DNA of 48,401 nucleotides, counting the filler, from Jimgerdemannia flammicorona (taxonomy: Eukaryota): NCBI GenBank assembly GCA_003990765.1. It is 2 parts of 2 records of this genome, joined end to end, with 100 filler letters (N's around TTAATTAATTAA, not from the genome) between each part and the next. Parts side by side here need not be neighbours in the genome. Positions count along the whole stretch, not along the records: positions 1 to 24,153 come from RBNJ01001018.1; 1 more part is not named here. One strand, given 5' to 3'. Of this stretch, positions 1 through 30,699 are shown piece after piece (within the stretch, counting starts at the first letter, position 1; each line of letters starts with the position of its first letter). The position numbers and the translations under genes are program-made. The notes under the pieces are model-generated. The model saw only the letters and a program-made list of their open reading frames with translations. It did no database searches and was not told where the DNA came from.

Positions 1-32
<32 letters not shown>

Positions 33-35
<3 letters not shown>

Positions 36-1197
36 ATTTTTCCCTCTTAGAGTCTCCAGCCTCTCTTCCTTTCATATTATAGCATCAGTATCAGTACTAG
101 TAGACTCATCTCACTCCTTCTTCAGAATATTCTATAGTTTAACCTCTATAATCTCAATCATCTGCTCACTCTTTATCATATCAGATACTCTAAACCAAAC
201 TCTATATATATCTCTCAACTCTATATCCTTCACATTCTGTATAGCTCAAGCATTAGTCCTCAACTTTTACTTCTTTTTTTTCTTTCAGATCTCAAGTATA
301 CTATCATTATAGAGCTACTGGTCTCTTACTTCCCTACTCTCTGCTACTTTCTCCAATACTGCTCCTGTCTTATCTCTGACCTAAGTGCTCACTATTGTCT
401 ATCTGAGCTCTCCTTAGTACTAGTAGTAAATGGCTCCTTTATATCTGCCAACAGGTCTCTCTGGTACTTTCTCTCCTATATCTTCTCTTACAATATCTTA
501 TCTATATAAATCTGCTTTCCATTTACTATCTCTAAGTATATTGATGCTATATATATCTACCAAGCAATTGCTATATACTCCACTGCTCTACTGAGCTCTT
601 TCAAGACCTTCAACAGATCCTTTTTTACCCTCACTACATACCTTATAAATAAATATACTCTATATCATCATAGATAGCTAGTTACAAGCCTTTCTGATAG
701 TCTTCTTTTTAGTAAATTAGAGTCAGATATCCACATCTCTAGTTCTGAATTAGATCCTGACCTGAAATCTAATATTTATAATATTACTATACTCTATTAT
801 GATCTTCTCTATCCTCTTTCTTATCTCAGTCATTATTACTATAAGTACTCCTTTTACTAAAAGCTGAATAACTCTTGGGTCTCACTTTAAATATTGAGCC
901 ATTAGTATTACTATCTTATTAACTATCAATCTAATCTTCAAAGCCTCTTCTAATAGTCTTATTTTTTCAAAATCCACTCCAACTTTATTCTATCTTTTAT
1001 AGAAACTTCACTAAAGCAGCTTTAGCTATCTGCTTTAAGATCAGCTCCAGAACTATCTTTGCTATCACTATAGCTCTTAAAAGTATAATATGATGATAAA
1101 TTCCAAGATTAACTTCTTAAGTAATATAGCCACTACTAGGTCTATTATATTATCTATCAGATATTTGTTCCCTTTATATCCTATCTGCTCAGCTCTG

Positions 1198-1199
<2 letters not shown>
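33..1199 (-). mobile_element. Old, heavily decayed LINE ORF1-region fragment; host of the younger LINE, probably continuing at ~7200-7560
   Basis: Bases ~600-1170 align by eye with 5990-6570 of the adjacent LINE (e.g. aaattccaagattaacttcttaagtaat vs aaactccgagattgacttcttgagcaat), with many C>T/G>A changes. Confidence 0.75.
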
Positions 1200-1231
<32 letters not shown>

Positions 1232-1374
1232 GTCACTTGGACTTCCTTTCTTTATTATACCCATAAATATAGTGAACTCACTCCCTAACTGATCCCCCTA
1301 GGGGCCCTCCCCCCACCTACCCCTACTCTACAAAAGGCTACTTTGTCCAATACTAACTCTACTCTTCCATCACT

Positions 1375-4300
1375 CTATTCACAGATTCTTGCCACTAAGC
1401 CACAACATTGCCCCCATTGAGGACCCCAACTCACCCACCATCCAGTCAGCAGATCTCCCAACAACTCCTCTAACCATAATACCTTCTTCTGTAGCCCCAT
1501 CTGCCACTCCTCCTCAAATACAAAAAGCCAATATCCAGTTAGTCCCACCCATACTGCTAACACCCACTCTACAGTGAGCCAACTATCATCTACACCACCT
1601 ACTAGCCAAGATCTCAAGTCCTCTCAGTGGCCCCCCTCCTCTGCTGGCCATCACTCTACACTCAGTCTATTCCCTATTTCTACCCAAAAGTCCCCCAAAA
1701 CCTCACACTCTCCTAGCCAGTGTTCTGGCATCTATACAAGTCCCCCAGCTTATCCAACATTGTAGTACTTCTCACAATCTAAACAGCCACCATCCACCAG
1801 ATGCCCAGTATGATAATTTAACATGATATTCCTCTGCAGCATTCACCACCATACCACCCAGAACTTGGGAGGAAGCCACCACTGTACCTCAGCACTCTAT
1901 GACCAGATACCTGCCCAGTCTCACTCCTCACTGATCCCTGTCACCTGCCAGCCACTTGGCCAAAGATCTAGGCCAAGACCCTGCTGCAACTCCACTCTAT
2001 CTCCAATATTAAACTCAGTAAGTGAAGCACTCCCCAGAAGCAGTCTATCCCATCACCACATACCAGGACCCCACATCACCTCCCCCTCATTGCCTTGCCA
2101 GCACAGGCTAATTCGGTATGCTCTATCTACCACCTCCCACCAAAAGCCCTTAAACTGCAGTCACTGATTTTCATTCAGCCCCACCAAAGAAAGCAGATCT
2201 CCTGAGGACCCTCGAGGGGAGGACCTCATCTCCCACACCTTCTGCATCAGTGGTACCCATCCTCCTCCCTGTAGTTCAGTAGCTCTCTTCAACCACTAGG
2301 CCCTCAAGCAGTACAACCTCTTAGGGAAATCCACAAGGCCAAGACTCTTCTGACCACTGGTATTACAAGAGTATTCCAACTGATCTGAGATCTCCCCCCT
2401 GTCCAAATCTAATCTCTAGCCACCTTCATCAGTCTCTTCACCACTCAAGCTAGGAAGTCTAGATGATAGGCTATATACCATAGCTTGGAGAACCAGTAGA
2501 CATTCAGAATTGATACATGCCCTACCAGAGAGATATAGCGGCCTCCCCAACCTCGAAGGGCCTCCCCCCAAATGGTCACTCTGCTCTTCCACCACACTTA
2601 TAGCAAGACAGACCCATATATAGAAAGAAAGATGCTCAGATATCACACTACCTCACTAGTAGGGACAATTGTTCCAATGATGTCCCCCCCCACTAGTCCA
2701 TTCCCTAGCACCATTGTCTCACACTTATGCTAGTTGAGCTTTACCCCAGAGTGAGCCTCATACCATTTCACTATTCTCTTAAGTGCCTCAATATCTGCCA
2801 CCAATCTAAGTCCAACCACTATGTTATCTGCAAAGGCCCCCACCTTCCACACTATATCATATATAGAGAGCCCTGCCATCTTCCAGCAAATTCTATCCAT
2901 CAAAGGCTCTAAAGAAAGGGTATATAGCACAGAGGACAGAGGGTCTCCCTGAGGAACTCCTCTTCCCAAGGGAAATGCCAGACCTTAGTAACCATTACAC
3001 ATTAATGCTGCCTGACTGCTATCTAGCAGATTCAATATAGAAACCCAAAATCTTGGGAGAACATCAATTCAATCCAACACCTTGCTCAGCCAAACCTGCC
3101 ATATATGGTCATAGGCCTTCTTCTGGTCCAAAAAGACCAATCTTCCATTCAGTCCATAAGCCCAGGTCCCTTCAATGATACCATGTACCCATACAGTCTC
3201 ATCTCTTATAAGTCTGCCCCTAACAAAGCTCTGCTACTCCTCTCCCAGCACCTGTTGGGTAACTTTCTGCAACCTTGTAACAATTACCTTAGTCACCATC
3301 TTCTTGTCCATATCCAGAAGCATGATCAGTCTCCAATTCTTTCAGTCTTCCCTCCTTCTCTTGTCTTTGTACAATAAGGCCACCAGCCTGAGGTCCTGCT
3401 CTCCAACCCACTCACTACTCTGAAGAACATGGTCACAGAAAGCAGCCATCTCACCCAAAACTCTGGGGACCTTTACCATCTTCTTCCAGAAGTCCCACAG
3501 TAACCCATCCTCCCCTGGTACTGTTCCAAGCTTAGTTGCTACAAGGATACTCTGGATCTTCTCTCCTTATACTGGTAAGATCAAGTTCTGCTACTTGTGG
3601 TGGCCCCCACTCCTCTAGTGTATCTACAATCACTGCCTCATCAGCACTCCCTTCTCTCTCACTCCACAAAACCTGCCATCTCTTCTTCAAAACCCCTAAG
3701 ATTTGTTGTATTCCATGTACCATGTCCCCATTAGCATCTAAGACTCCATCTCACTGATGTCGCACCCTCCTAGCTTTGAGGAGTCTTGACAGGTACCTAG
3801 TAGGCTGCTCAATCTCCTCAAGCTCCTGCCACCAAAGTCTAGCAACCATTCCTTATATATGAGTCTCTTCCTCTTCTCTCAACATCTGTTACAGTTCTAC
3901 TATCTCCAATTTTGCCCACTCTATCCTCCACTCCTCCACCCCATCAGAAGTAAGCAAATTTGCCCAATCCATTTGCAGTCTCCTCAGCCTGCTGGAAGCA
4001 CACCTCATGTGCTTCCTCCTCTATCTCCCAGCTTCTCTACCAGCTCCTCCCTAATAGACCCTCACAGCCTCTTTCAATCTCATCCAATGGACATCCACAG
4101 ACAAACCCTCATATCTCCAGATAAAAACCTTTACCTGAATGTCCTCCACCTATGCATCTCACAACCCCTTCTCAGCCAGCAGGAAGGAGTTAAGGTGCCA
4201 ATGTCCAGGTCCATCTCCACTCCCCCCAAACTGCCCCTACTTCAACAGTCTCCAGTAATCAGACCATGGGCACCACTCTACCTCCAGTGTCTTCCAAACA

Positions 4301-4935
4301 TCAGAACCCCAACACTCAGCTGTCAGAATCTAGTCAATCCTTATACCCAAGCCATTCACCCAATATATGTAGACCCTGGTGTTGCCCCACCATGTTCTGC
4401 CCATATTCCCTAAGGAGCTCAAATTCTCCACCTCCTCCCATGCATCCAGACCTCCACTTCTCTCCCCTGCACTCCTCCCTCCATCTGTTCTATCTAGATG
4501 CTGATCCCAAACCATATTAAAGTCCCCACTGAGAACATCAACCTCTTTCTCTAAGAGAATACCCTCCTCTAGCAGCTTCTTAATCTATGCAATTCTCTCG
4601 CCCCTAACTGCTGGGCAGTAGCAAGAGCCAACCCTCATCAACTCTCACTCTGGCTGATGCCAATCTCCCCAGACCAAGTGATCACCCCAGCTCCTGATTT
4701 CCCTCAAGTCTCCTCTATCCTTCCTCACCAGAATTGCCACTTTTCCAAACCAAGCAATAGTCCTACCCCATTCTCTAGTCCACTCTACCCGATCATCCTC
4801 ATCCTCACACCATATATCCTATAGTAAAAAGAGATCAGCCTCCAATCTTTTGAGCCAAGTAAAAATGTTCTTATACTGCCCAGATCTCCTTAACCCATTC
4901 ACATTCAAAGAGAAAATGTTGGTTGTACTATTCAT
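1375..4935 (-). pseudogene. LINE ORF2 (AP endonuclease + reverse transcriptase), disrupted by stops and frameshifts
   Basis: Starts MNSTTNIFSLNVNGLRR (APE motif I) at 4935. RT motifs LDQKKAYD (~3130), GVPQGDPLSSVLY (~2940) and AFADNI (decayed YADD, ~2830). Confidence 0.9.
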
Positions 4936-4949
4936 AAGAAATAATGTTA

Positions 4950-6801
4950 TATGGCAATCCCATCCTCTACAAGTCCGCATTTGGCTCCTCCTACACCAAG
5001 TCCAAGTTATATTCAGTAGTTAGTTCCCTTTCTCTAGCTTTCCATACCTCCAACCCTTCCAGAAGTTCTACCATCACCCTATCTTCTCTCTCCTCAAAGT
5101 TCTTGTGATACTCCAGACAGGCCTCCTGCCAGAGCTGCAAACCATGACACTCTGCCCAACAGTAGGCTGCCTGCTCACCAGTGACCACTACCAGCTCCAC
5201 CTTCCTCACCTCATCAATCTCATAATCCTCCTCCTCCAGGAAGATTGCAAGAATCTCCACCTTCAGCACCTCTACCACTCCATCTCCATACAGAATTTGC
5301 ACCCAATACTCCTCAGGTATTATCTGCAGATCCACTTCTCCCAATGCCTCAGCCACAAGGTTATCTATCACCTTACTCATCCACAGCAAGTTCCCCACCT
5401 TCTTCTCACTCAGAGTCTCTGGCCACCCTGCATCCAACATCATGGTATCAGCTCCTACACTGGCAGCCTCATCCCACTCCTCCTCAGGGATATCCACCAG
5501 CTTATCCTCACCAACTGCCACCACCTGGCCCCCTTTCACCACATCGAGGACCCCAAAGTGCACTCACTGAGCCCCCTGCATCAGTATATCCACTGTTGTC
5601 CCTCTCTTCACAGCCGGGCCCCTCCTGATAAGAGGGGGGGGGGTGGTATCCAATTTCTGCTCCCAGACCTCAAATGTGCCATCAGTATAGAGATCCTTGC
5701 TCAGTATCTTCCCAGCTCCTTCCTTGCTTGCCTCCACCTCTCCTTTGCCTTTACTAGCCCAGACACTGGCTTCAATGCCCCCAGACCCCTTATCTCCCTC
5801 TGCCTTCTTCTTTGCCTCTTCTTTCATACTTGCTAATAGCTCTCTCTGTCTCCTGCACCCCTGTACCCACTCTCACTGCCTCTTGTTAGTATGAATATAC
5901 TTCCCATCTACAATCTCCAGATGTGTTGACTCCTCAAACACTCTTCAGGCCTTTGCTCTCCTCTCAACCATATCACTCAACTCCTCCAGAGCCTTCAACA
6001 AGTCCTCTTCCTCCTCTTCACTCCCTTTCACCTTTGATACCTTACAGATAAAAGTCTCCCACATTAGTACTGAGGGCCAGTTACCTATCTTCCCTGTGAC
6101 CTCCTTCCCTGCCAGCCAAATCCTGACATTGACATCACCCATTCTGAATGTGGTCCCCTCCTACATCTGGAAGCCAATGTCCACCACATCACCATACTCT
6201 ACCATCACCTCCTCTACCCTCCTCCTAGTCTCCTCCTTTGTCACCATTAGTACCCCTCTCACCAGAAGCTATACCACCCTGGGGTCCCATCTCAAGCACT
6301 GTACCATAGGGACCACCACTTTTCCAACTACTACTCCAATCTTCAGGGCCTCATCCAGTGGGCCCACCTCCTCAAAGCCCACCTCAACCCCCTCCAGACT
6401 CTTCAGGAACTTCATTGAGGCTACCCTAGCCACCTGTTTTGAAATAAGCCCCAGGACCATCCTCACCATCACCACTAAGTCCTAAAAGTACAAGGTGGCC
6501 ACAAACTCCGAGATTGACTTCTTGAGCAATGGGGCCACCACCAGCCCTATTATACTATCTGCCAGGTCTCCCTTCTGCATTGGAGGCCCCTACTCCACCT
6601 TGTCATTAGCTCTCATATCTCTTTTTTTTTCCTGAACCCCTATCATACTCCTATCAACAGTTAGTCCCAGCTATAGTCCCTTCAGCCCCTATACTTACCT
6701 CTCCCCTCTGAGGGTCACTTCTCCTCCTGACACTAGTCTTGTCCTTCTCATCAGCAGTGCTATCTCTGGTTTCAGCAGACCATCCACTCACCTTTATCTT
6801 G

Positions 6802-6860
<59 letters not shown>

Positions 6861-7089
6861 GTTACTTGGACTTCCTTTCTTTATATACCTTTATCTTGTC
6901 AGTAAAGCTAGAGAGACCAGGCCTTCCCCCAGATTCACCAGACACTAGTCCTTCTCCAGAGCCTTCACCACCCTTCAACCCTCTAAAAGCCCCCATCCTT
7001 AATCTATAACCTCTCTCCACATGCTGCCAGCCAAAAGTCCCAGGTCCGCCTGATCCAGCATGCCTGTCAGAAATCTTGCTCAATGACAT
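4950..7089 (-). pseudogene. LINE ORF1, disrupted
   Basis: Series of acidic/coiled-coil minus-strand ORF fragments (4991-5563, 5564-5827, 5945-6142, 6269-6475, 6862-7089) directly upstream of ORF2 and inside the TSD-bounded element. Confidence 0.65.
6804..6886 (-). mobile_element. Extremely 5'-truncated copy of the same LINE family (~29 nt of 3' end + poly(A)) inserted in ORF1
   Basis: poly-T followed by atagttacttggacttcctttctttat matches 1229-1255. Flanked by 14-bp TSD acctttatcttgtc at 6790-6803 and 6887-6900. Confidence 0.9.
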
Positions 7090-8511
7090 TTTTATAGTAT
7101 CTTTTCTCTGAGTTGTATTGAAAACTGTTGCTTGAAGTTTGTGTAATATGAATTATACAAGAAAGAGGTGGCAACTGCCAATGTCTGCTCAGCTCTGCTA
7201 TTAGTAGTCATATGTATCTAAATTTTTTGTCAGATTTCCAGTCATATTGTCATTAGTAATCTCACCTCTACTCTTAGCTATAGCCTCACTAGTCTCTATA
7301 TTAACCTCTCTAGCCATTAATCCACCAGTTCTTTCAGTACTTATTTTTTTCTTCTCCTCAGTCTTACTACTCTAAGTACTTCCAAACTGGTCTCCTGTCA
7401 TTATCTTATTAATAAAACTCATCAGCCTCTACTCTTCTCTATCTCTACCTAATAGTTGACTTCTATTTTACTTTTCTTACTCACTTTCACTACTAAAGAA
7501 CTCCAATCTCATGTTATAGCCCCTTCTAATATATTATCACTTAAAGGTCCTAGATTTATTCAACTCAGTATACTTATTAGAATACTTATTGATCACTATA
7601 TTATTATTATTTTTCTCTAATAAACTATATAAAAGTATATTGTAAAGTTTATATATATAATATGAGAAAAATTATATTTTCTTTTTCTTTATTAACTTAA
7701 TTATTGCTATTTATATTATTATAATGAGATTTATTTATTTATTTATTTTTAATTATTTTAGAAGATATTAATATTTGAGAATATGTTATCTTTTCATTTA
7801 ATATATAAGTATTATTTAAATTTTTAATTATACTTTTCTTTTTTTAAATGAGATAAAAAAAATAAATTAGTTAACTTCTTCTTCAGAATTTTCACCCCTG
7901 TTATAATAACTGAGAACTATCAACTTTAGCTTCAAAATATAAGATATAATAAGATAAATCTTTCTTTAAAAAAATTTAAAAACTATAACTAAAACATTCT
8001 ATTCAAAATTATTAATTAATAGTATTGCAAAGAGATTGACTTGTTATTAAGATTCTAGCCCAGTATTTTTTAATATCTTGACAACTTTAAATATTACAAT
8101 TAATAATAAAGACAGGCTGATTATACGCTTGCTAATATTCCAAGCACATCACGTGATTTAATGAGATTTTCAGTTTAGCCGATTTTGGTTACATGACTGA
8201 GGTCTTTAGGTTGGCTGTGCTATATCTATCTAGGCCACGAATCCAGTCTCTCAGAGTGCCATTGTGACCGCAAAGAACTAGCATACTTTTAAGCAATGTT
8301 ACATTCCCATGAGTCATCTACGGTTATACCTGTCCAAACTCTCAATCAAAGGACACGAGCTCGCCATGGTTGAAAAAAATAAAATGCACCATGAAATCTC
8401 GGGTCCTAACTGTCGAGACCCAATATGGCTTAGTAAAAAAATTGGGATTTCCGTTTATATAACCGATACTGCAAACGCCTCGGCCTATGACATATTAAAT
8501 ATGGATATATA

Positions 8512-8754: not shown

Positions 8755-9040
8755 GATATATCTGTGGCCAGACATATATGTATATAATGATGATTAAATG
8801 CCACTGGAAGCAAACTCTCAAAATGGCAATCACCGATGAAGCAGAAACTTGAGACACGATGGGTATCACACAAGCTAGTACTATAATAGCCATGTTTACT
8901 AAAGAGAATGTTCCAGGTATCGTGTGAGGTTCCGAAAAGAGATAGCCGTCACAATTTCGGTACAGCACGATAACTTGCAGACAACTCTCAACTCTTCTCT
9001 TGATCACCGAAAGAAATATCAGTATACACGTTTGCCCCCC

Positions 9041-12000
9041 ATGTCCTCCTCCTTCAAACTTCCAACTCCTTCACTTGACGAAATCAAAGCCTGGGATGAA
9101 AACAGAGTCTTTGAACACTTTCAGCATCCCGCTCACAAATTGAAACCCGAATATGTCGCAATCTTACAAATTCAGGAAGTAGACGGGAACGCTCTTTTTC
9201 AGATTACCAAAGAAGATCTATTGGGACCACCATATAACTTACCTGGTGGACCTGTGGCTAAAATCATCGGTGAGATCGCTCGATTACGAGGTAATTGATG
9301 ATTATCAAATGCAAACGCTTCACGGAATTATTTTCAAGTAAATGATTCCGCTAACAGTTTGAATATTATTCGAATGTTTGGTATCTTAGCTCACTGGAAT
9401 TTTAACATTTCATTTGCATCTAATCTAGGAACAGGCGTCGGTCAGCGTGCATCTCTGGAAGGTGTTATCTTTTTTTTTTTTTTGGTGACAGTCATGTGTC
9501 TTAACACACGAATTCACCATCTTGATTTAATACATAATTTGATTATAGAAAATCACATTGGCGATAAGGAAACCATCGCATTCGAAATGAACACGAGCCT
9601 GCGAAACCTGAATCTATCGGGTATGTAGAAGTGAAGTACGCATTCATCTGTTTAGTGTTCTGCTGGCAACTATGGGTAAAAATTTATATGTTCTACTGTA
9701 GGCAATGGTACTGGCGAGGAGGGAGCCAGCACTCTAGCCGAAGGACCGAAAATGAACACAAACCTGCAAACTTTGGATCTAGACGGTATGTAATAACCAA
9801 GTTCATTGCCTTTATTAATTTAATTTTTAGTTTTCTTTTCTTTTATTTGCTTTTAATTTTATTTTACATTCATCTGTTTGTTGTTGCTGATGGGCTTTTA
9901 TGTGTTCCTCTGTAGGAAATACCATTGTCAAGGATGGAGCCAGCGAACTGGCAGAAGTACCGGAAATGAAAACGAGTCTGCAAAACCTGAATTTAGAACG
10001 TATGTAGGAAGAAAGAAAATTACATTTTTACATTCTCCTGTTTAATCTCCTAGCTGAAAAACACGTGAATACATTTTATGTATTCTTCTGTAGGAAATAC
10101 CATTGGGGAGAAGGGAGCCAGCACATTAATCGAAGCACTGAAAACGAACACCATCCTGCCAACTCTGAATGTAAAAAGTATGTCGGAATGAAGCATATTT
10201 ACATTCTTTACACTTACATTCTGAGCTGTCAGTCATGCATGTGAATGTTATATGTTCCTCAGTAGAAAATGACCTTATCACACAAGCAGAAGCCTTGGTA
10301 ATGATTAGAAGCTTACAAAATCTGGATCTACTGGGTATATATAAATGAAGCACATTACATTTTATTCCTTCTTTTTCGATCCATTTGTTCCATTTCCTGA
10401 CTAACAGTCGTGCATATATATTTATATGGTTCTCTGTAGGGTGTGGAATTGGCGAAGAGGGAGCTAGCATCCTCGCCGAAGAACTGAAAATGAACACGAG
10501 CCTGCAAAACCTGAATCTGGAAAGTATGTTAGTTATTTTGATGCTTTAGCAGACAACCACATGTATAAATTTTTGTATTCCTCTATAGACAATGGTATTG
10601 GCGAGAAGGGGGCCAGCGCACTAGCCGAAGCACTGCAAATTAACACGAGCATGCAAGACCTGAATCTACAATGTAGGAATGAAGCGCGTTATATTTTGCA
10701 TTCATCTCTTTAGTGTGCTGGCGGACAACAATGCATATAAATTTTATGTGTTCTTCTGTAGACAATGATATTAGCGAAAACGGTGCCAGCGCATTATCCG
10801 AAGCATTGAAAATGAACACGAGCCTGGAAAATCTGAATCTATTGGGTATACAGAAATGAAATGCATTACATATTTATATTCATCAGTTTAGTGTTCTAGC
10901 TTACGATTATGCATGTACATCTTATGTAGGCAATGGCATTGGCGAGAAGGGAGCAAGCGCACTTGCCGAAGCACTGAAAATTAACACGAACTTGCAAAAC
11001 CTGAATCTACAATGTATTTAGGAATGATGTACATTATATTTTTGCATCCATCTACCACTCATATCCGTTTATATGTTCCTCTGTAGCCAATGGAATTGGC
11101 GAGAAGGGAGCCAGCGCACTAACCGAAGCACTGAAAATGAACACAAGTCTGCAAAACCTAATTCTATGGTGTATGTAGGAATGAAGCATATGTTATTTTG
11201 CATCTGTTTAGCATTTCGGCCGACAAACACGCATATATAATTAATGTGTTCCTCTGTAGACAACGACATTGGCGAGGAGGGGGCCAGCGCACTAGCCGAA
11301 GCACTGAAAATGAACACGAGCCTGCAAAACCTAGATCTAGGCAGTATGTTGCGAATTATATTTTGTATTCATCTTTTTTGGCATTATTGCTAATACTTAT
11401 GCATACCATTTTATATCTTCCTCTCTAGACAATGGTATTGGCGAGAAGGGAGCCAGCGCGCTAGCCGAAATATTGAAAATAAACACGAGCCTACAAAACC
11501 TGAATCTGGAAAGTATGTAGTAATTAAGTGCATTATATTTTCACAACCATCTGTTTAGCATTCTAGTTGACAACCATGGGAAAATTTTTTGTGTGTTCCT
11601 CCCTAGGAAATATCATTAAGGAGAAGGGAGCCAGCGCATTATTCGAAGCACTGAAAACGAACACCATCCTGCAAAATCTGAACGTAACAAGTGAGTAGGA
11701 ATGAAGCATGCTACATTCTTCGTACCCGTGTTCTGGCTGACAGCCATGTATGTAAATTTTATATGTTCCTCGGTAGGCAATGGCCTTACAGCAATCGCAG
11801 AAGCCCTGATAATGATAAGGAGCCTACAAAATCTGGATCTATCGGGTATGTATGAACGAAATGCATTATATTTATTATTTTCAATCTTTCTGTTTTGTGT
11901 TCCGACTGACAACTATGCACATATATATTTCTCCGTAGGGTGTGGTATTAGTGAGAAGGGGGCCAGCCAAATAGCTGAAGCACTAAAAATGAACACGAGC

Positions 12001-13775
12001 CTGCAAAGCCTGAATCTAAGAAGTATGTTGGATTGAAGTGCATTATATTTTTGCATTTATCTGTTTTATGTTTTAGCAGACAACTGTGTATATTAATTTT
12101 ATGTATTCCTCTGTAGATAATGATATTGGCGAGAAGGGAGCCAGCGCACTAGCCGAAGCACTGAAAATTAATGCGAGTGTGCAAAACCTGAATCTAACAG
12201 GTATATAGGAGTGAAGCGCATTATATTTTTACATTCATTTTTTTAACGTTCTAGCTGAAAAATACGCGGATTTTTTTTTTTTTGCTATTACTCTGTAGAC
12301 AGTCATATTGGCGAGAAGGGAGCCAGCGCTCTAGCCGAAGCACTGAAATGGAATACGAGCCTTCAAACCCTGAAATTATGGAGTACGTAGGAATGCAGCG
12401 CATTACGTTTTTACATTGATCAGTTTGCCATTCTAATCGATAAAAATGAATATATATTTTGTGTATTCCTCTGTAGACACTGTCTCTTTCAAAAAGGATA
12501 TTGGCGATAAGGGAGCCAACGCACTAGCCGAAGCACTGAAAATAAATACGAGCCTGCAAGACCTGGATCTAACAAGTATGTAGGAATTAAGTAAAAATAT
12601 TTTGCATTTGTCTAACTAACCACGCGTACACATTTTGTATGTTCCTCTGTAGACAATTGCATTGGCGAGAGGGGAGCTAGCGCACTGGCTGAAGCACTGA
12701 AAATCAACACGAGCCTGCAAGCCCTGTATCTACATAGTATGTAAGAATGATATTTGCATTCATCTGTTAAGTATTCTAATTGACGCGTATACTTTTATTT
12801 GTTCCTCTTTAGGCAATGTTATTGGCGAGAAGGGCGCCAGCGCAATAGCCGAAGCACTGAAAATGAACACGAGCCTGCAAGTCCTATATGTAGGAGGTAG
12901 GAATGAAGCGCATTTTATTTTTGCATTCATCTGTTTAGTGTTCTAGCTTACAGCCACGCGCATACATTTTTTGTGTTCTTCTGTAGTCAATGATATTGGC
13001 GAGAAGGGAGCCAGTGCACTGAGCGAAGCAATGAAAATGAACACGAGCGTGCAAAACCTGAATCTAACAGGTATATTGGGATCAAGCGCAAGATATTTTT
13101 GCAGTCAGCTCCTTGATGTTCTAGTTGACAAGCATCCATATACATTGTATGTGTTCCTCTGTAGAAAACGGTATAGGTGAGAAGGGAGCCAGCGCACTAG
13201 CCCAAGTACTGAAAATGAACACGAGCCTACAAATCCTGAATCTATTCTGTATGTAGGAATTAAAGCGCATTATATTCTTTTACTTATTTGTTTATTGTTC
13301 TACCTAAAACCACTCATATACATTTTATGTGTTCCTCTGTAGCCAATGGTATAGGCGACAAGGGAGCCAGCGAATTAGCCGAAGCATTGAAAATGAACAC
13401 GGGTCTGCAAAATCTGGATCTAACATGTATGTAGGAATGAAGAATATTCATTTTTGCATTCATCGGTTTAACGTTCTCGCTGCTAACCAGGTGTGTACAT
13501 TTTATGTGTTTGTAGGGAATGGTATTGGCGAGAAAGGAGCTAGCGCACTAGCCGAAGCACTGAAAATGAACACGAGCCTACAAGTCCTTTATGTAGGAGG
13601 TAGGAATGAAGCGCATTTTATTTTTGCATTCATCTGTTTAGTGTTCTAGCTGACAATCACACATATACATTTTATGTGATCCTCTGCAGCCAATTGGAAT
13701 ATTGACGAGAAGGGAAGGAGCGCACTAGCCGAAGCGCAGAAAGTGAACAAAGTCATCTACATTAACCAACTTTAG
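9041..13775 (+). CDS. SAM domain + 25 ribonuclease-inhibitor-like LRR protein (gene 1), one LRR per exon
   Basis: Exon 1 9041-9290 (SAM: W..NRVFEHF...ILQIQEVDGNALFQITKEDLLGPPYNLPGGP). Micro-exon ~9429/9435-9461. LRR exons start at 9549, 9702, 9916, 10094, 10266, 10440, 10589, 10762, 10930, 11087, 11260, 11429, 11607, 11777, 11939, 12117, 12299, 12477, 12653, 12813, 12987, 13165, 13343, 13516, with terminal exon 13690-13775 (TAG). All introns GT-AG phase 1; no stops in the spliced frame. Consensus xNxIGEKGASALAEALKMNTSLQxLxLx. Confidence 0.9.
9549..13775 (+). repeat. Tandem array of ~180-bp exon+intron units (LRR array 1)
   Basis: Repeated exon core attggcgagaagggagccagcgcactagccgaagcactgaaaatgaacacgagcctgcaa and repeated intron gtatgtaggaatgaagcgcatt...ctagctgac...tgtgttcctctgtag. 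Confidence 0.95.
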
Positions 13776-14281
13776 CGGAAACGATTGGACTTCCTATTAT
13801 AGCGAATTTCAATGTATACACCTAGTTAACCGCAGTTTTGCGATCAGGCCATAAAAATACCGTCTGTTTAGTTTTACCTTGCCAATATGGATTCCAAGCA
13901 TCCCAGACCTTTGCGTTCCCATCATACTACTTCGGGGGTGTGACTATGAAAGGTCGATGGTGAGAGTCTTTGTCAATTATGTGGCTCGGCACAATGAGTC
14001 ATGTCAATTTTGCAGGTAGCACAAGTTCGTCATATGACAACCATGCTTACTACAAGAGAATGTTCCGTGTATCGTCATGTGAGGTTTGAAACACAAAAAG
14101 GGATTGCAGTGCAATTTTTGGAGAATGTCGAAGGACCTGATTACCGAGCTTATGGAGCTCGGAGTTATTTTACACGGATAGGTCCCACACGGATAAATAC
14201 CTTGCGAAAATGGTTTTCGTATCGGCGGGCAACTCTCTTCTTGATCACCGAGAGGAAAATCGGTATACACATCAACCCACC

Positions 14282-14699
14282 ATGTCCTCCAAACTTCCAA
14301 ATCCTTCGCTTGACAAAATCGAGACCTGGGATGAAAATAGAGTCTTTGAACACTTTCAGCTTCCGGCTCTCGGATTGAAGCCCGCGCATGCAGAAATCTT
14401 CCAAAAACAGGAAGTCAACGGCAAAGCTCTTATTCAGCTTACCAAAGAAGATCTATTGGCACCTCCATATAACTTGCCTGGTGGACCTGTGACCATAATC
14501 ATGAAAGAGATTTCTCGATTAGGCGGTAACTACAGTCAAATGCAATGGTTTCAAGAAATTATTGTCAAATAATGGTTTTGCCAATAGTTATAAATATTAT
14601 TCAAAGTTCCGTTACCTTTTCTCATCGAAACTTAAACATTTCATTTGTATATATCTGACCTATGAACAGGGTTCGGTCAGTATGCGTTTCCAGAAGGCG

Positions 14700-14737
<38 letters not shown>

Positions 14738-17700
14738 CTTTTTGTAATGGCCATTAGTCACAGTTCACAAATTTGTTATCTTGAATTCTAACATAATTTG
14801 CACTTTAATTATATGTAAAAGCTATCAGCCAAAGTAACGTAAATGCTATTATCAAGAAAAATGTGGCTGACGTCGATGAACTGAAGCATAATATCGAATC
14901 GGTGAGACAGAAGATCGAATCGACAATGAATAAGAAGGATTTTATTTTTTATTTTTTATTTTATTTTTATTTTTTGCAAATTTTATAAAACTTTCCTGAT
15001 TATATTTCATTTTCTCAACATGTATATAGATCGTACAGGGCATAGAGCGTAATACAGAAAAAATAATGAGCGATATGGAAGACATAAAAGTCGATACAAG
15101 AAACATCCACAGCAGCCTCCAGGAACTTAGCGGCAAGGTTGACGGTCTGCCTAAGCTTATGCTTGATATCCATGAGGATACAGTCCCGCGACTCTTCTTC
15201 ATTTTTCCCGAGGATGGTCATTGGTTGGCACCATCAATCGACAGCCTCTTCACCAAAAAGTTCCGTCTATACTTTCTGTGCGAGCACGAAACCACCACGA
15301 CGAAATATTTCCATTTGGCATATCATGGCGGTTATCCTGTCGTCCGACCACGCGAGGTATATTATTTCGATATTCGGTATACCTTGCACTTCAGCTGTCG
15401 AGATACAATTATTTATTTTTCTGCTTATCATATGTCTACTGGCATTTATTTTAGTTTGTAGCTAAATATGGACCATATATACGTACGGTAGGTCTTCTGT
15501 TTGAATCTGAGCGTCCGAACTCTCTTTGCAAACCATCTAACATTTATCGTGCGAAATAGATTATGCCCTATCTAATAACGGCTGTTCGCTTGGGGGAACG
15601 CCTATTAGAATGCGTTCCTGCAGTCGGAAAATCAGCAGCAGAAGTCCTACGGGCGGGCGGTGACGTTGCTTCGATAGCATACAAGGCCACAGAATCGTCA
15701 ATCTTCACAAAACCTGAACTTGAGTTCTGCGCGCAGACTGAGAAAATGTTTGAGATACTTGGAGACAACCCCGAGGCTACTGACAAGCAGGTCACGAAAT
15801 ATACGACTGATACTCCGTCGTTTGTTCAGACGCAAGGAAAACCCCTGGGAATGATGGAAAGGCCTGATCTACGGGAACTTCAAGGTACAGTAATACATTC
15901 ATTTTATCTATTCAAGTGCGCATGCACGGATTTTACTTTATGCTCATTATTTCTTTTGAATTTTTGTTTATAGCTTACCTTCAGGGCTTGGATAATTCCA
16001 ACCGACTTGGAAATCTGCAGCGCGTGCTCCGTCATGGGGAAAATGGTAAAACAACTGTGCGGTGGGTGTGCAAGCGTCACGCCTCGGAATGGGAGACGAC
16101 AAATGCTGTTCGGGATGTTCATATGGTCATCAAGAGTAGCTCCATAGATAACGGCGTGACGTTTGACGACGCGACTTGGGAGCTGACGTTCGCATTGGTT
16201 TTTGGTCTCAATATTCATCTTGTATCTTTATATCTATTTTGTTTTCATACTCAAGATATTGTATTTATTTTAATATCAGGATTCAGAACTTGCCTAATGG
16301 TTCTCTGCATAAATTTCGAAATTCGGTGACGCGCGCAATGTCTGGTATCCCTTTGCGGAAAATCAGGTGGTTAGTTTGACTTTTAGAAACCTTTGCCTGA
16401 TCATAGTGACTAATGAGTGAATAAAATTGTAGCATTATAGATTGTGAAAAGGCTGATTCAGAAGATGTAGAAGCTCTGGTTAATGCCACAACCACCATTG
16501 AAATTCTTAAGTAAATTATGTTAAATTTTTGCTTTATAAACTTAATAAATTAAATATTAACACACTCTTTGCTATTGATATATATCTAGACTTAAAATGA
16601 AGAATATGCAGTATGATCACTTATCATTCAATGTTTTTATTTGACAATAGGTTATAGATCAGAAATCTCTATAGTAATAATTACTAATGAAATTAATCTT
16701 TACTGGTTTATAGATATAAAAATATTCTTCAGAAGTGTCTTCAGCTTCGAGAATTGGATCTCTCAGGTATATTATAATAACTGTTTAATATTTTCATCTG
16801 TGGCGATTTCGTATGAGCTTGTGTAGAGCAATATTTACAGCCAAGAGCAGCTGAGGTTGTGCAAATGAATATGTGTCTTCGAAGTTTGGGAATGTACATA
16901 TGAAAGCAAACTACATCTTTTCATTTATTTCTAACTACCAGCTATATATGTTATTTAGGCAGTCATATTCGCGATAAGGAAACCAAAGTACTAACTGAAG
17001 TATTTAAAAAGAGCACAATCCTGCAAAATCTGAATCTCTCAGGTATGTAGAAATGAAGCATATTTTATTTTTGCATTCCTATGTTAGTATAATAGTTGAA
17101 AATTGTGTATATAATGTATCTGGTAGACAATTACATCGGCGAGATGGGAGCCAGGGCACTAGCCGAAGCACTGAAAATGAACACGAGCCTGCAAAATCTG
17201 GATCTATATGGTATATGAGAACAAAGCGCGCTGATTTTTTCTTTTATTTCGCTTTTTATTTTATCATTTTTCGGTATTGCCGACGGCTGTGAATATATAT
17301 TTTATGTGTTCCTCTGTAGGAAATACCATTGGCGAGAAGGGAGCCAGCGCGCTAGCCGAAGCATTGAAAGTTAACACGAAACTACAAAACTTGGATCTAG
17401 GCAGTATGTAGGAATGAAGTGCATATTCATCTATTTGGTATTCTTGCTAATAACTACAGATATACATACATTTTATGTGTTCTTTTGTAGACAATAGCAT
17501 TGGCAAGGGAGCCAGCGCACTAGCCAAAACATTGAAAATGAACACGGGCCTGCAAAATCTGAATCTGGAAAGTATGTAGGAATGAAGACCATCCTAATTT
17601 TACATTCATCTAGCTGAAAATCATGTGAATACATTTTATGTGTTCCTATGTAGGAAATGGCATTGACGAGGAGGGAGCTAGCGCATTAGTCAAAGCACTG

Positions 17701-17913
17701 AAAACGAACACCATTCTGCAAACTCTGAATGTGAAAGGTGTGTAGGAATGAAGCGTGTTACATTCTTTGCACCCGTGTTTCTTTCTGACGGGCCTACATG
17801 TGATTTTATGCGTCCTCCATAGATAATGCCTTTACCGCACTATCAGAAGCCCTGATAATGATTAGATGCCTACAAAATCTGGATCTATCAGGTATGTATG
17901 AACGAAGCGCGTT

Positions 17914-17958
<45 letters not shown>

Positions 17959-19353
17959 TTTTTTTTTTTGTTTTTTTTGATCTATCAGTTTTGTATTCTG
18001 GCTGACAGTCATGCATATATATTTATTTGTTTCTCCATAGAGTGTTGCATTGGCGAGAAGGGAGCCTGTGCACTAGCCGAAGCATTGAAAATGCACACAA
18101 GCCTGCAAATCCTGAATCTGGAAAGTATGTTGAATTGAAGCGCATTATATTTTTGTATTCACCTGTTCAATGTTTAGACACATATACATTTATGTGTTCC
18201 TCTGTAGACAATTATATTGGCGAGAAGGGAGCTAGCGCACTAGCCGAAGTACTGAAAATGGACACGAGCCTTCAAAACCTTAATCTGGAATGTATGTAGG
18301 AAGGAAACGTATTATATTTTTGATTATATTGGTTTATTGTTCTAGCTGACAACCACACACATACATTTCTGTGTTCCTCTATAGTCAATGGTATTGGCGA
18401 GAAGGGAGCCTGCGCACTAGCCGAAGCGCTGAAAACGAACATGAGCCTGCAGCACCTGGATCTATGGGGTATGTAGAAATAAAGCCTATTTTATTTTTGC
18501 ATTCATCTGTTTAGTGTTCTAGCTGACAGCCATGATATTATACATTTGACGCATTTCTCTGAAGGCAACGGTATTGGCGAGAAGGGGGCCATCGCACTAG
18601 CCGAAGCATTGACAAAGAACAAGAGCCTGCGAAACCTGGTTCTAATCCGTATGTAGGAAGATGCGCGTTATAAAAACTTGCATTCATATGTTTAGTGATC
18701 TAGCTGACAATCACGCGTATACATTTATGTGTTCCTGTGTAGGAAATGATATTGGCGAGAAGGGAGCCAGTGCACTAGCCGAAGCACTCAAAATGAACAC
18801 AAGCTTGCAACACCTGGATCTATGGGGTATGAAAGATTGAAGCACTATATTTTTTATTCATGCATTTAGAATTCTAGCTGACAACTGCATATTTATACTT
18901 TATGTATTACTCTGTAGAAAATGGCATTGGCGAGAAGGGAGCCTGCACACTAGCTGAAGCACTGAAAATTAACACGAGCCTGCAAACCCTTAATCTACAC
19001 AGTATGTAGAAATGAATGCATTAAATTTTGCATTTATCGGTTTACTATTCTAGCCGACAACTTGGTGTATACATTTATGTGTTTCTCTGTAGACAATCAT
19101 ATTGGCGAGAAGGGAGCCAGCGCACTAGCTGAAGCACTGGAAATGAACACGAGCCTGCAAGACCTGAATCTACATTGTATGTATATAGGAATGAAGTGCA
19201 CTATATTTTTGCATTCAACTGTTTAGTGTTTAGGTGACAACCTCATATATATTTTTTATGCATCCCTCTGTAGTGAATGGCGTTGGCGAGGAGGGAAGGA
19301 GCGCACTAGCTGAAGCGCAGAAAGTGAACAAAGTCACCCGCATTAGAGTATAA
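14282..19353 (+). CDS. SAM + coiled coil + central PRLF/RLYFLCE domain + 14 RI-like LRR protein (gene 2), paralog of gene 1
   Basis: Exon 1 14282-14525 (SAM). Micro-exon ~14670-14696. Central exons ~14822-14901, 15030-15356, 15455-15487, 15560-15884, 15974-16187, 16280-16366, 16433-16510, 16590-16610, 16714-16766, 16827-16883 (some boundaries uncertain). LRR exons start at 16959, 17127, 17320, 17491, 17654, 17823, 18041, 18208, 18385, 18565, 18743, 18918, 19093, with terminal exon 19274-19353 (TAA). Confidence 0.82.
16959..19353 (+). repeat. Tandem array of ~180-bp exon+intron units (LRR array 2)
   Basis: Same repeat unit as array 1. Confidence 0.95.
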
Positions 19354-20947: not shown

Positions 20948-21201
20948 TTATTCATAGTTAATGCGAATGCCTTTGTTCACTTTCTGCGCTTCGGCTAGTG
21001 CGCTCCTTCCCTTGACGCCAATATGCCAATTGGCTACAGCGGAAGACATAAAATTAATATGCGTGGTTGCCAGCTAGAACACTTAACAGTTGAATGCAAA
21101 ATTATAATGCGCTTCATCTGTTAGATCCAGAATTTGCAGGCTTGTGTTCTTTTTCACTGTTTTGGCTAGTGCGCGGGCTCCCTTCTCGTCAATACCATTC
21201 C
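20948..21201 (-). pseudogene. Orphan 3' end of a third LRR-exon gene (one 84-nt LRR exon + terminal exon), inverted relative to genes 1 and 2
   Basis: Exon 21201-21118 encodes NGIDEKGARALAKTVKKNTSLQILDLT with its GT donor deleted; homologous intron; terminal exon 21033-20948 encodes NWHIGVKGRSALAEAQKVNKGIRINYE*. Confidence 0.88.
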
Positions 21202-21255
21202 CTACAGAGGAACACATGCGCGGTTGTTGGACCATGAATTTAGCATGGCAGATAG

Positions 21256-24253: not shown

Positions 24254-24317
<64 letters not shown>

Positions 24318-26214: not shown

Positions 26215-26560
26215 GGTGAGGTGGTGAGCAATGGAGCACTGAGCAGTGGAGTGCTAAGCGGTGGAGTGGAGCGCTGAGCAGTGGAGTGGAGTGCTGAATG
26301 GTGGAGCGCTAAGCGGTGAAGTGGAGCGCTGAGTGGTGGAGTGGAGTGCTGAATGGTGGAGTGCTGAGTAGTGGAGTGGAGTACTGAGTGGTGGAGCACT
26401 GAGCAGTGGAGCAGTGAGCAGTGGAGCAGTGAGCGGTGGACGGTTGAGTGGAGCGGTGGATGGTTGAGTGGAGCAGTGGATGGTTAAGTGGAGCGGTAGA
26501 TGGTTGAGTGGAGCGGTGGAGTAGTGGGGTAATGGAGTGGAATGGTAGAGTAGTAGAATG
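26215..26560. repeat. G/A-rich low-complexity satellite (gagtg/gagcagtg)
   Basis: Visible degenerate short repeats; a second copy lies at 30170-30460. Confidence 0.9.
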
Positions 26561-26692
26561 GTGAACAGGTACAATCCAACATACATCACATGCCAACAAC
26601 TAACATGCAGCAAAGAGATTTTTTTATTACCTATATACACCATACATGCCAACCACTATAAGCCTTTTAGGGCAACCCGCGCTCATCAGAAT

Positions 26693-27073
26693 TATAACCC
26701 TGTGCATGTCAGCATTGTAACCCCCATGCATGTCAGTATTGTAACTCCTGCACATGTTAGCATTGTAACCCCCGTGCATATCAGCATTGTAACCCCCATG
26801 CATATCAGCATTATAATCCCTGCACATGTCAGCACTGTAATCCCCATGCATGTCAGTATTATAGTACCTGCACACCAGCACATATCAGTACTATAATCCC
26901 CACATATGTCAGCATTACAACCCCCGTGCATGTCAGCATTACAACCCCTGTGCATGTCAGCATTACAATCCCCATGCATGTCAGCATTATAACCCCCATG
27001 CATATCAGCATTACAACTCCTGCATATGTCAGCATTACAACCCCCGTGCATATCAGCATTACAACCCCCTGCA
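26693..27073. repeat. 24-bp minisatellite, ~16 copies
   Basis: Unit gcatgtcagcattgtaacccccat. Confidence 0.93.
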
Positions 27074-30169: not shown

Positions 30170-30460
30170 CAGTAAAGCGGTAGAGCAGTGAGTAGTGGAG
30201 CAGTGAGTGGTGGAGCAGTGAGCAGTGAGTGAGCGGTGGAGCAGTGAGCAGTGAAGCAGTGAGTGGTGAGTAGTGGAGTAGTGAGCGGTGAGCGGTGGAG
30301 CAGTGAGTGGTGAGCAGTGAGCGGTGAGCGGTAGAGGGGTGAGTGGTGAGCAGTAGAGCTATGAGTGATGAGCAGTGGAGCAGTAAGTGGTGAGCGGTAG
30401 AGTGAAGAGCAGTGGAGCAGTTGAACGGTAGAGTGGTGGAGCCGTGAGTGGTGAGCAGTA
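30170..30460. repeat. G/A-rich low-complexity satellite (second copy)
   Basis: gagcagtgagtggtg-type repeats. Confidence 0.9.
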
Positions 30461-30699
30461 TAATGCAAAAAGATTAGAGTCTTTGTAAAATATACAATAT
30501 ATACAATACAAGACACATTAAGGATGAATGCCCTACGTACATATGTACTGTTAGTCTTTAAGGCACCCGTGCATGTCAAATTGCAAATGAATTTCCTATG
30601 TAGAGTGGAGGGTGGGTGCTGAAAGGTGACCAAGTTGCAGAATGTTGATGACAGATATCGAGTGCTCAAGTTGCAGTGTTGAAGGGCCAATCATGTTAG

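Follow-up and report, generated by a model that had tools for sequence, protein, structure and literature searches.

The window analysed here, a stretch of 48,401 nt of Jimgerdemannia flammicorona DNA, holds two tandem paralogous genes in which one LRR corresponds to one frame-preserving exon, typically of 84 nt and phase 1 at both ends, and in which two positions of the repeat, x7 and x8, have diverged far beyond the introns that adjoin them. We narrowly favour an explanation in which selection maintains, or creates, differences between repeats in a putative binding surface, alongside exchange that homogenises scaffold and introns. The pattern fits a fast-changing recognition surface, and nothing in it points to a special mechanism at the junctions.

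Two tandem LRR genes and a relic

Between 9549 and 19353 on the + strand lie 39 LRR exons, as the earlier note had claimed, gene 1 holding 25 and gene 2 holding 14; exon tabulation and a repeat HMM agree on this, the HMM (built from the repeats and scanned along the + strand) recovering the identical 39 exons and zero extra. Spliced in silico, gene 1 is an intact ORF of 774 aa in 26 exons, its SAM-like exon followed directly by the 25 LRR exons and every intron AG/GT-bounded and phase 1. The gene-2 model comprises 865 aa in 23 exons, all AG/GT-bounded, and encodes a SAM-like exon, a coiled coil, a central domain and the LRR array. Pfam SAM_1 matches gene 2 at E 1e-4 (23.0 bits) and gene 1 at E 0.018, below the cut-off; a homologue search with the gene-1 SAM exon gave no matches. 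The features are as follows.

9041..13775, + strand: gene 1
9041-9290, + strand: gene 1, SAM-like exon
9549-9620; 9702-9785; 9916-9999; 10094-10177; 10266-10334; 10440-10523, + strand: gene 1, LRR exons (start)
10589-10672; 10762-10845; 10930-11013; 11087-11170; 11260-11343; 11429-11512; 11607-11690, + strand: gene 1, LRR exons (continued)
11777-11845; 11939-12022; 12117-12200; 12299-12382; 12477-12575; 12653-12736, + strand: gene 1, LRR exons (continued)
12813-12896; 12987-13070; 13165-13248; 13343-13426; 13516-13599; 13690-13775 (including stop), + strand: gene 1, LRR exons (end)
9549..13599, + strand: gene 1, array of exon+intron modules of ~175 bp (TRF period 178, 71% matches)
14282..19353, + strand: gene 2
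14282-14525; 14822-14901; 15030-15356; 15455-15487; 15560-15884; 15974-16197; 16287-16366; 16433-16510; 16714-16766, + strand: gene 2, non-LRR exons, open frame throughout
15030..16197, + strand: gene 2, central-domain exons, absent from gene 1
16817..16903, + strand: degenerate LRR-like pseudo-exon within a gene-2 intron
16959-17042; 17127-17210; 17320-17403; 17491-17571; 17654-17737; 17823-17891; 18041-18124, + strand: gene 2, LRR exons (start)
18208-18291; 18385-18468; 18565-18648; 18743-18826; 18918-19001; 19093-19176; 19274-19353, + strand: gene 2, LRR exons (end)
16959..19353, + strand: gene 2, array of exon+intron modules (TRF period 175, 72% matches)
20957..21206, - strand: relic 3' fragment of a third family member (last two LRR exons), convergent orientation

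The pseudo-exon has a weak HMM match (6.9 bits at 16850-16888); inspection by eye found no phase-compatible donor for it, and the open gene-2 model omits it. The relic is 83% identical to 13511-13766, with HMM matches at 21119-21199 (45.8 bits) and 20972-21025, and has no GT donor behind its first exon.

A Mucoromycota family with RI-type LRRs

On sequence grounds we place both genes in a family of Mucoromycota proteins that has LRRs of RI/NOD2 type and no detected NOD domain. In gene 2, a central domain homologous to that of the family lies N-terminal to the LRR array; gene 1 has no counterpart of 14720-16960 and hence lacks this domain. The central-domain exons are 60% identical to a hypothetical protein of Endogone sp., exon 15030-15356 matches residues 242-337 of Podila verticillata P0187 (BLASTP E 3e-15), and exon 15976-16197 matches residues 435-491 of the same protein (hhalign 66.6%, E 5e-5). 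A search with the central domain returned at least 255 proteins at E<=1e-3, the best 120 of which are nearly all from Mortierellaceae and often at neighbouring loci; genes 1 and 2 are closest to Endogonales proteins.

A scan against a Pfam-A copy lacking PF27087, run on the three long central-domain exons among the eight non-LRR exons that follow the SAM-like exon in gene 2, found zero families at E<0.01, NACHT and NB-ARC being absent from the matches, and by eye no GxxxxGK[ST] motif was found in the spliced gene-2 protein. Because the central part of the P0187 AlphaFold model has a pLDDT of 40-60, the gene-2 central part may still be a very divergent NOD; a fold search with this model matched LRR proteins only, and comparison of the central domain with the Protein Atlas was uninformative (best score 0.79).

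The repeats have the RI-type form, 28-29 residues with LxxLxLxxN/CxL and then an amphipathic helix. Single exons score E 0.08-0.28 against Pfam LRR_6, below the cut-off, as expected of only 27 residues, and the homologues P0064 and P0016 pass LRR_6 at 145.5 and 60.3 bits. A 32-aa exon searched against the PDB matched LRRC34 (1.8e-9), NOD2 (6.5e-8) and RI (0.003), and the fold of the P0187 model matches NOD2, RI and NLRP3 at E about 1e-13. From the sequence, the LRR_6 matches of homologues and the homologue fold, the LRRs are classed as RI-type (RNI-like, Pfam LRR_6).

One repeat, one exon, one intron position

Of the 39 LRR exons, 31 are exactly 84 nt, or 28 residues; the other eight measure 72, 69 (three exons), 99, 81, 86 and 79 nt. 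All 38 tabulated introns are AG/GT-bounded and phase 1, the upstream exon giving 1 nt and the downstream exon 2 nt of the codon for residue j, which is x8 of LxxLxLxxNxI, and the additional junction between 16766 and 16959 in the gene-2 model is likewise phase 1. The claim that one variable codon is split 1+2 by every intron was therefore borne out at 38 of 38 junctions.

The introns, 65-149 nt long, are mutually homologous (mean column diversity 0.32 in a MAFFT alignment of 31). Within gene 1, a 62-nt exact match runs from exon nt 75 to intron nt 52 (12887-12948 = 13590-13651), and a 41-nt exact intron match joins the two genes (13615-13655 in gene 1 = 18488-18528 in gene 2). Tracts attributed to exchange measure about 60-100 nt. 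The repeat-unit tree is star-like, with 99% support for two clades only, and divergence between the genes equals divergence within a gene; mean pairwise repeat identity is 65% in amino acids, 74% in amino acids when the five x sites are left out, and 75% in nucleotides.

In the history that we propose, genes 1 and 2 are tandem paralogues of a Mucoromycota-specific family whose proteins would carry an N-terminal domain that varies (SAM-like in this case), then a coiled coil and a central domain, ahead of an RI/NOD2-type LRR horseshoe. From gene 1 the central domain has probably been removed by an in-frame deletion of about 2.2 kb. The arrays would have grown by tandem duplication and exchange of the ~175 bp exon+intron module, equivalent to one 28-residue repeat. 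Every copy would carry a phase-1 intron because the ancestral intron sat behind the first base of codon x8, and since copies inherit that intron, the split codon would be a by-product of module duplication.

Variability concentrates on a few positions

The repeat consensus, jNxIGEKGASALAEALKMNTSLQNLNLx, conceals very unequal variability. Among the 31 regular exons, amino acid entropy peaks at x7 (3.52 bits, 14 residues) and at j/x8 (3.02 bits), followed by x10 (2.42), x3 (2.26) and x5 (1.75), and the helix part is well conserved, mostly at 0.2-1.4 bits per position. This per-site entropy bears out the description of a nearly constant helix against widely varying x positions, and the gene-1 strings offered as examples in the earlier note are correct in seven cases of seven. 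Residue j takes 13 kinds over 38 junctions: G, N, R, S, E, D, Y, K, V, W and A, all 11 of them already listed, with F and L added by gene 2. Mortierellaceae homologues agree: over 160 repeats of 59 such proteins, x7 (3.72 bits), x8 (3.43) and x5 (2.76) vary most. The placing of the variable residues on the beta-strand face holds in part: in AlphaFold models of two homologues, x3-L-x5(-L-x7) alone is scored as strand, whereas x8 and x10 are predicted to lie in the loop just behind it.

Divergence relative to neutral proxies

The x codons proved more variable than the adjacent introns, as the earlier note had expected: mean nucleotide diversity is 0.64 at x7, x8 and x10 (9 nt) and 0.53 over all 15 x-codon nucleotides, against 0.36 in 72 internal intron columns and 0.24 at 23 other third positions (Mann-Whitney p = 7.5e-6, 9e-4 and 4.5e-5). 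At x7 and x8 it reaches saturation (0.70-0.76), and background-level diversity is found already 1-3 nt away from the x codons. Across 15 independent pairs of units, x codons have a dN of 0.69, whereas introns reach 0.36 and synonymous sites elsewhere 0.40 (Wilcoxon p 0.002 and 0.003).

The further expectation of dN/dS above 1 at the x positions divides the tests, which include pairwise counts and marginal-likelihood site tests, with introns aligned by MAFFT. When all sites share a single synonymous rate, the PAML assumption, omega reaches 17 at x7, 6.4 at x8 and 2.6 at x10, and a PAML-like comparison of M1a with M2a gives an LRT of 89.4 and a posterior of 1.0 for x7 and x8, although these figures compare repeats inside one protein, unlike a comparison of alleles or orthologues, and inter-repeat recombination inflates results of the PAML type. 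Positions x3 and x5 are not significantly above neutral (beta 1.47 and 0.84). When synonymous rates are site-specific, x8 alone is nominally positive (p 0.024, which fails correction for 28 sites), and x7 shows alpha > beta because it is saturated. Within x codons, NG86 pN/pS is 0.81, and four-fold synonymous differences are raised as well (77/140, 0.55, vs 1230/3874, 0.32, elsewhere), as would be expected of older or protected divergence and not of fresh adaptive change. In recent clades (three supported, 7 pairs), the ratio of pN at x to the neutral proxy is 1.00. Global omega is 0.61, falling to 0.07-0.3 where the repeat has L, G, A, N or I, and purifying selection acts on the scaffold positions (omega about 0.1-0.35). 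The diversifying selection proposed earlier is thus supported in part: the excess of x codons over introns and third positions stands and the constant-dS tests are positive, but the free-dS and recent-clade tests are not.

The neutral pace in recent clades, the roughly neutral rates of x3 and x5 and the raised synonymous diversity of x codons would all follow if unconstrained x residues simply drifted and appeared hypervariable because exchange keeps scaffold, synonymous sites and introns alike; the mosaic 62-nt tract and the equality of inter-gene and intra-gene divergence also speak for such exchange. We nevertheless think relaxed constraint unlikely, if worth serious attention. Exchange tracts include x codons, that at 12887-12948 carrying x7 and the first position of j, so drift with exchange should homogenise x codons too; moreover, diversity drops to background right beside the x codons, and x7 and x8 are saturated where introns are not.

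Repeat-specific, fixed x residues are the common state of LRR proteins, as the 'x' positions of the LRR consensus imply. Purifying selection on such residues (for example for one invariant ligand), with the rest of each repeat homogenised, would accommodate x codons that diverge highly at synonymous and non-synonymous positions alike with background diversity immediately adjacent. Two sets of matched blocks, g1_4/g1_13/g2_4 and g1_6/g1_15/g2_6, argue against this: their x sites differ at the neutral pace, their scaffold sites at 0.35 of neutral. The arrays are also of unequal length, 25 and 14 repeats, and we regard a fixed surface as improbable.

Under the favoured reading, selection for differing repeats combined with exchange, residues x3, x5, x7, x8 and x10 would be exposed on the concave side, along the strand and the ascending loop, and would change at or above the neutral rate. 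Such a regime would be the one described, in the available part of PMC4986451, for the WD40, ANK and TPR repeats of fungal NLRs that are internally conserved.

The split codon as a proposed source of diversity

The earlier note had also proposed that the split codon itself generates diversity, new exon pairings giving new residues at j, and had observed that no junction creates a stop codon. The observation is correct, for none of the T-ending exons (7 of 38) precedes an exon starting AA, AG or GA. Its reading as purifying selection on the frame was rejected, since any intact ORF shows zero stops and random pairing gives the same result with P 0.07-0.12.

Re-pairing of exons, through RNA skipping or intron recombination, is mechanically feasible: skipping keeps the frame because all exons are symmetric (phase 1-1), and 252 of 378 within-gene skip pairings would alter j, only eight creating stops. 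Exons 12813-12896 and 13516-13599 have in common their 3' part and half of the next intron but lead into differing exons, which makes j V in one case and A in the other; in human NLRs, moreover, exonic LRR modularity has been linked with alternative splicing, according to the accessible portion of Hoss 2019 (PMC6642158). The idea that splitting raises variability fails, however, on the comparison of unsplit x7 (3.52 bits) with split x8 (3.02 bits), and nothing therefore demands junctional diversity. The 13 kinds of residue at j do not exceed the 13.8 obtained by random pairing, and pairings are passed on intact within conserved blocks. Together with the uninformative stop count, these results lead us to consider exploitation of the split x8 highly improbable.

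Comparison with known systems

The nearest relatives are the Mortierellaceae 'RNI-like protein' family (precomputed Pfam labels PF27087 and LRR_6), which share the homologous central domain, the LRR type, hypervariable x7, x8 and x5 and a similar short C-terminal cap repeat. They differ in that the N-terminal domain is SAM-like here and beta-rich in P0187, and in that gene 1 is without the central domain. A literature search, of papers apart from their supplements, found zero papers on this Mortierellaceae/Mucoromycota family.

In plant R-gene and RLP LRRs, the positively selected residues of xxLxLxx are solvent-exposed, and the focus of variation on exposed strand and loop residues is alike here. 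Plant-type LRRs have 23-24 residues and usually not one exon per repeat, and selection on them has been shown between alleles or paralogues, not between repeats within one protein. Diversifying selection on NB-LRRs is also mentioned in the available text of PMC4986451.

The nwd, het-e and het-d arrays of Podospora (WD40, ANK, TPR; Dyrka et al. 2014, PMC4986451) resemble the present arrays, as far as that text was available, in having tandem similar repeats inside a multi-domain protein of a fungus, hypervariability at a few positions of a predicted binding surface, signs of exchange among repeats and paralogues, and an expanded, clustered family. The repeats here are LRRs, by contrast, and the same source states that 'no LRR motifs were found' in fungal NLRs; surveys of fungal NLR-like proteins, in the parts of PMC4986451 and PMC12258605 at hand, describe WD40, ANK, TPR or HEAT repeats, no LRRs, and few NLRs in Mucoromycota. 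In addition, no NACHT or NB-ARC was detected here, each repeat is its own exon, repeat identity is 65-74% rather than the about 85% given for Podospora in the available text of PMC4986451, and positive selection is not robust, being found under constant dS and not with free dS or in recent clades.

Animal NOD/NLRC and NLRP genes likewise have 28-residue RI-type LRRs, one per short frame-preserving exon (available portions of PMC2747839 and PMC6642158), and NOD2, NLRP3 and ribonuclease inhibitor are the closest solved sequences or folds to our LRRs. Here, however, the genes are fungal, the introns are homologous and 65-149 nt long, and no NOD domain was detected. Going solely by the motif that PMC2747839 prints (XLaaNaL...LaaL), the boundary of NOD exons falls before x5 and ours inside x8, three residues later; on that basis the two do not have the shared intron position that common descent of the exon structure would predict.

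Implications

The family is widespread in Endogonales-like and Mortierellaceae fungi and combines animal-NLR-like LRR horseshoes with no detected NOD domain, its surface positions varying as expected of recognition receptors. Were it not a recognition system, these would be ordinary LRR proteins, with the variation that the 'x' positions of LRRs always show. A bolder reading, which we hold to be quite doubtful, is that Mucoromycota, in which NLRs are thought scarce and LRR-type receptors absent, possess a NOD-less LRR recognition repertoire produced by germline module shuffling through homologous introns, each new adjacency giving a new x8 surface residue; its proteins may pair a hypervariable LRR of RI type with a novel central domain and, at the N-terminus, a signalling domain that varies. 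One-repeat-per-exon modules with homologous introns would offer a clean natural case for studying array expansion and exchange. If the family does serve recognition, it would represent a separate fungal route to LRR-based sensing, relevant for plant-associated fungi that host endobacteria.

Gene and exon anatomy

Introns in the window are short and of eukaryotic, fungal style (GTATGT...CTGAC...YAG-like), and two intact genes result when the exons are joined at AG/GT borders. Both a similarity scan and a repeat-derived HMM placed 39 LRR exons on the + strand within 9549-19353, and no further ones on that strand elsewhere in the window.

Genes and relics of the LRR family
9041-13775, + strand: gene 1, opening with a SAM-like exon followed immediately by 25 LRR exons; 774 aa
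14282-19353, + strand: gene 2, a SAM-like exon, 8 exons (coiled coil and central domain) and 14 LRR exons; 865 aa
16817-16903, + strand: degenerate LRR-like pseudo-exon inside a gene-2 intron, skipped by the open gene model
20957-21206, - strand: inverted relic of a third copy, comprising its last two LRR exons; 83% identity to the end of gene 1

No donor of compatible phase was found by eye for the pseudo-exon. In the relic the first exon has lost its GT donor by deletion, and the remaining sequence is probably a pseudogene fragment derived from a third family member. At its 5' end (8989-9483) gene 1 matches 14230-14719 of gene 2 (77% identity), and it then picks up again at the equivalent of position 16963; it is therefore a deletion derivative of a gene-2-like ancestor, ~2.2 kb including the central domain having been lost in frame. 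Gene 1 has no counterpart of 14720-16960, the region holding the coiled coil and central domain; splicing of its phase-1 SAM exon onto the first LRR exon keeps the frame and predicts a SAM+LRR-only protein.

Exactly 84 nt were counted in 31 of the 39 LRR exons; the eight irregular ones (72, 69 three times, 99, 81, 86 and 79 nt) were excluded from codon statistics. In both arrays the introns (e.g. 12201-12298) nearly reach the conservation of synonymous sites and share the blocks GTATGTAGGAATGAAG..., ...TCTAGCTGACAAC... and ...TTTTATGTGTTCCTCTGTAG, which include a branch-site-like CTGAC; three donors read GTAGGA in place of GTATGT. Homopolymer A or T runs of 43-84 nt occur at 6804-6857, 14701-14743, 17917-17978, 24254-24308 and 47567-47650, the second and third inside gene-2 introns. 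Upstream of gene 1, positions 1-8000 are 8 kb of C/T-rich low-complexity sequence (GC skew -0.38 to -0.50) with no clear long ORF. G/T-rich minisatellite arrays (26232-27073 and 30179-30809; periods 15-55 nt) lie on either side of a region whose long ORFs (30952-31914 and 34078-34659) could represent a candidate transposase.

Variability of the repeat surface

The earlier note had described a nearly constant helix part and widely varying x residues (x3, x5, x7, x8 and x10 of LxxLxLxxNxI), and its seven example strings are all correct. Among the 31 regular repeats, amino-acid entropy peaks at x7, the last full codon (3.52 bits), followed by x8, the intron-split residue j (3.02), x10 (2.42), x3 (2.26) and x5 (1.75), against 0-0.8 bits at scaffold positions (L, G, A, I and N). 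The observed variability is genuine and far exceeds what chance would give.

The modules (exon plus intron, one 28-residue repeat each) have mutually homologous introns, with a mean diversity of 0.32 over 94 well-occupied alignment columns and 0.36 over 72 internal columns. The value is 0.24 for third positions of non-x codons, 0.53 when all five x codons (15 nt) are taken together, and 0.64 for x7, x8 and x10 (9 nt), the last exceeding that of neighbouring introns (0.64 vs 0.36). The x-codon differences reach significance (Mann-Whitney p 9e-4, 7.5e-6 and 4.5e-5), and the three highest-diversity columns anywhere in the module lie in x7 and j. Across 15 non-overlapping module pairs, JC-corrected dN at x codons was 0.69, compared with 0.36 for intron divergence and 0.40 for synonymous divergence elsewhere (Wilcoxon p 0.002 and 0.003). 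Sites directly adjoining the x codons show background diversity, and divergence at x7 and x8 far exceeds that of sequence 1-50 nt away.

Structure was judged from models of two homologues rather than of the window proteins: P0064 (single sequence, LRR part pLDDT 70-92) and P0187 from Podila verticillata (50-sequence alignment, LRR part pLDDT 82-96). In both, the strand comprises x3-L-x5(-L-x7), the following loop contains x8, N and x10, and the helix starts at the GA..LAEAL part. The placement of all x positions on the beta-strand face thus stands for x3, x5 and possibly x7, but x8 and x10 fall in the loop. That x3, x5 and x7 would point into the concave face rests on established LRR geometry (excerpts of PMC2747839). 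The best PDB matches of the P0187 model were NOD2, ribonuclease inhibitor (RI) and NLRP3 (E ~1e-13); a 32-residue exon matched LRRC34, NOD2 and RI by sequence.

Tests for selection

A module tree built without x codons was star-like, with 99% support only for (g1_4, g1_13, g2_4) and (g1_6, g1_15, g2_6), where g1_4 is unit 4 of gene 1. A codon-likelihood site test on this tree with one synonymous rate gave omega 17 at x7 (p 1e-15), 6.4 at x8 (p 7e-10) and 2.55 at x10 (p 2.5e-4); neither x3 (1.47) nor x5 (0.84) was significant. An M1a/M2a-type mixture (grid; tree and kappa fixed) yielded an LRT of 89.4 and a selected class of omega 8 containing x7 and x8 with posterior 1.0, and therefore the PAML-type test proposed earlier would come out positive. 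With site-specific synonymous rates, however, only x8 was nominally positive (p 0.024), x7 being saturated (alpha 28 vs beta 6). NG86 inside x codons gave pS 0.62 vs pN 0.50, and among codon pairs of four-fold families matching at positions 1-2, the third base differed in 77/140 at x codons vs 1230/3874 elsewhere. For the seven pairs drawn from the three recent groups with support, x-codon pN was 0.278, against a neutral proxy of 0.277 (ratio 1.00), with scaffold codons at 0.35 of neutral.

Exchange between modules is real: a 62-nt exact match runs from exon into intron, 41-nt exact intron matches link gene 1 and gene 2, and exchange tracts include x codons. Recombination inflates PAML-type tests, a point made in the methods of PMC4986451, as excerpted. 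Constraint acts on scaffold sites, and x sites evolve at the neutral rate or faster. Because the flanks stay at background diversity and the tracts carry x codons, pure drift fits less well than selection keeping the surface different between repeats. Diversifying selection, as first proposed, is plausible, although the tests behind it are undermined by recombination and site-specific synonymous rates, and the data do not demonstrate classical positive selection.

The split codon

As claimed, j is split 1+2 nt: the intron follows the first codon base at all 38 tabulated junctions, and the 39th (16766|16959) has the same phase in the gene-2 model. Descent of all modules from one exon-intron unit with a phase-1 intron would account for the split codon. 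The proposed junctional diversity finds no support, since the unsplit x7 is more variable than x8, and the 13 residues that j encodes across 38 junctions compare with 13.8 kinds after donor/acceptor shuffling. There is indeed no junction stop, but the accompanying argument for purifying selection is not supported: stop-making pairings are 77/1444 of all donor-acceptor combinations, zero in 38 is not significantly low (P 0.12 by formula, P 0.07 by permutation), and an open reading frame would have to lack them in any case.

Within-gene skip pairings create a stop in 8/378 cases and change j in 252/378, making exon skipping with the frame kept possible from these pairings. Strict exonic modularity of RI-type LRRs has been called a precondition for alternative splicing (excerpts of PMC6642158). 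One natural re-pairing was seen: the 3' part and half of the next intron are common to exons 12813-12896 and 13516-13599, but the exons that come next differ, so that j is V in one case and A in the other.

Relatives and known systems

Human NOD genes likewise carry one 28-residue LRR per exon, and NALPs two; by the motif printed in the same source, the NOD boundary precedes x5, whereas here it falls in x8 (PMC2747839, in part). Fungal NLRs have internally conserved repeats that evolve in concert and under positive selection, with hypervariable sites on the binding surface, but those repeats are WD40, ANK and TPR ('no LRR motifs were found'; PMC4986451), unlike the LRRs here. Mucoromycota have few NLRs according to part of a 2025 survey (PMC12258605). 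A Pfam-A search of gene 2's three long central-domain exons returned no NACHT or NB-ARC domain at E<0.01, and the window genes are therefore not NLRs by definition.

The only close protein match to the central exon of gene 2 is an Endogone sp. protein (60% identity). The central-domain search brought up at least 255 proteins homologous to gene 2 in this domain; of the best 120, nearly all bear Mortierellaceae names and are described as 'RNI-like' or hypothetical. Among LRR arrays with a named source, the nearest come from Jimgerdemannia (Endogonales) and Lunasporangiospora (Mortierellaceae). In 160 repeats from 59 Mortierellaceae homologues, chosen by a motif with scaffold residues fixed, x7, x8 and x5 are again the most variable. 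P0016, a Jimgerdemannia homologue, reads with translated intron-like inserts exactly after x7, which suggests the same intron position in its gene. Very similar internally conserved RI-type arrays occur in P0012, P0015 and P0126, proteins from bacterial or unnamed sources, one labelled a Chlamydiae MAG; LRR genes are reported to have moved between Mucoromycota fungi and their endobacteria (excerpts of PMC10507103). The literature searched contained no paper on this central-domain and LRR family. More interesting is the family as such, in which early-diverging fungi have proteins that lack a NOD but carry exon-modular LRR arrays like those of animal NLRs.
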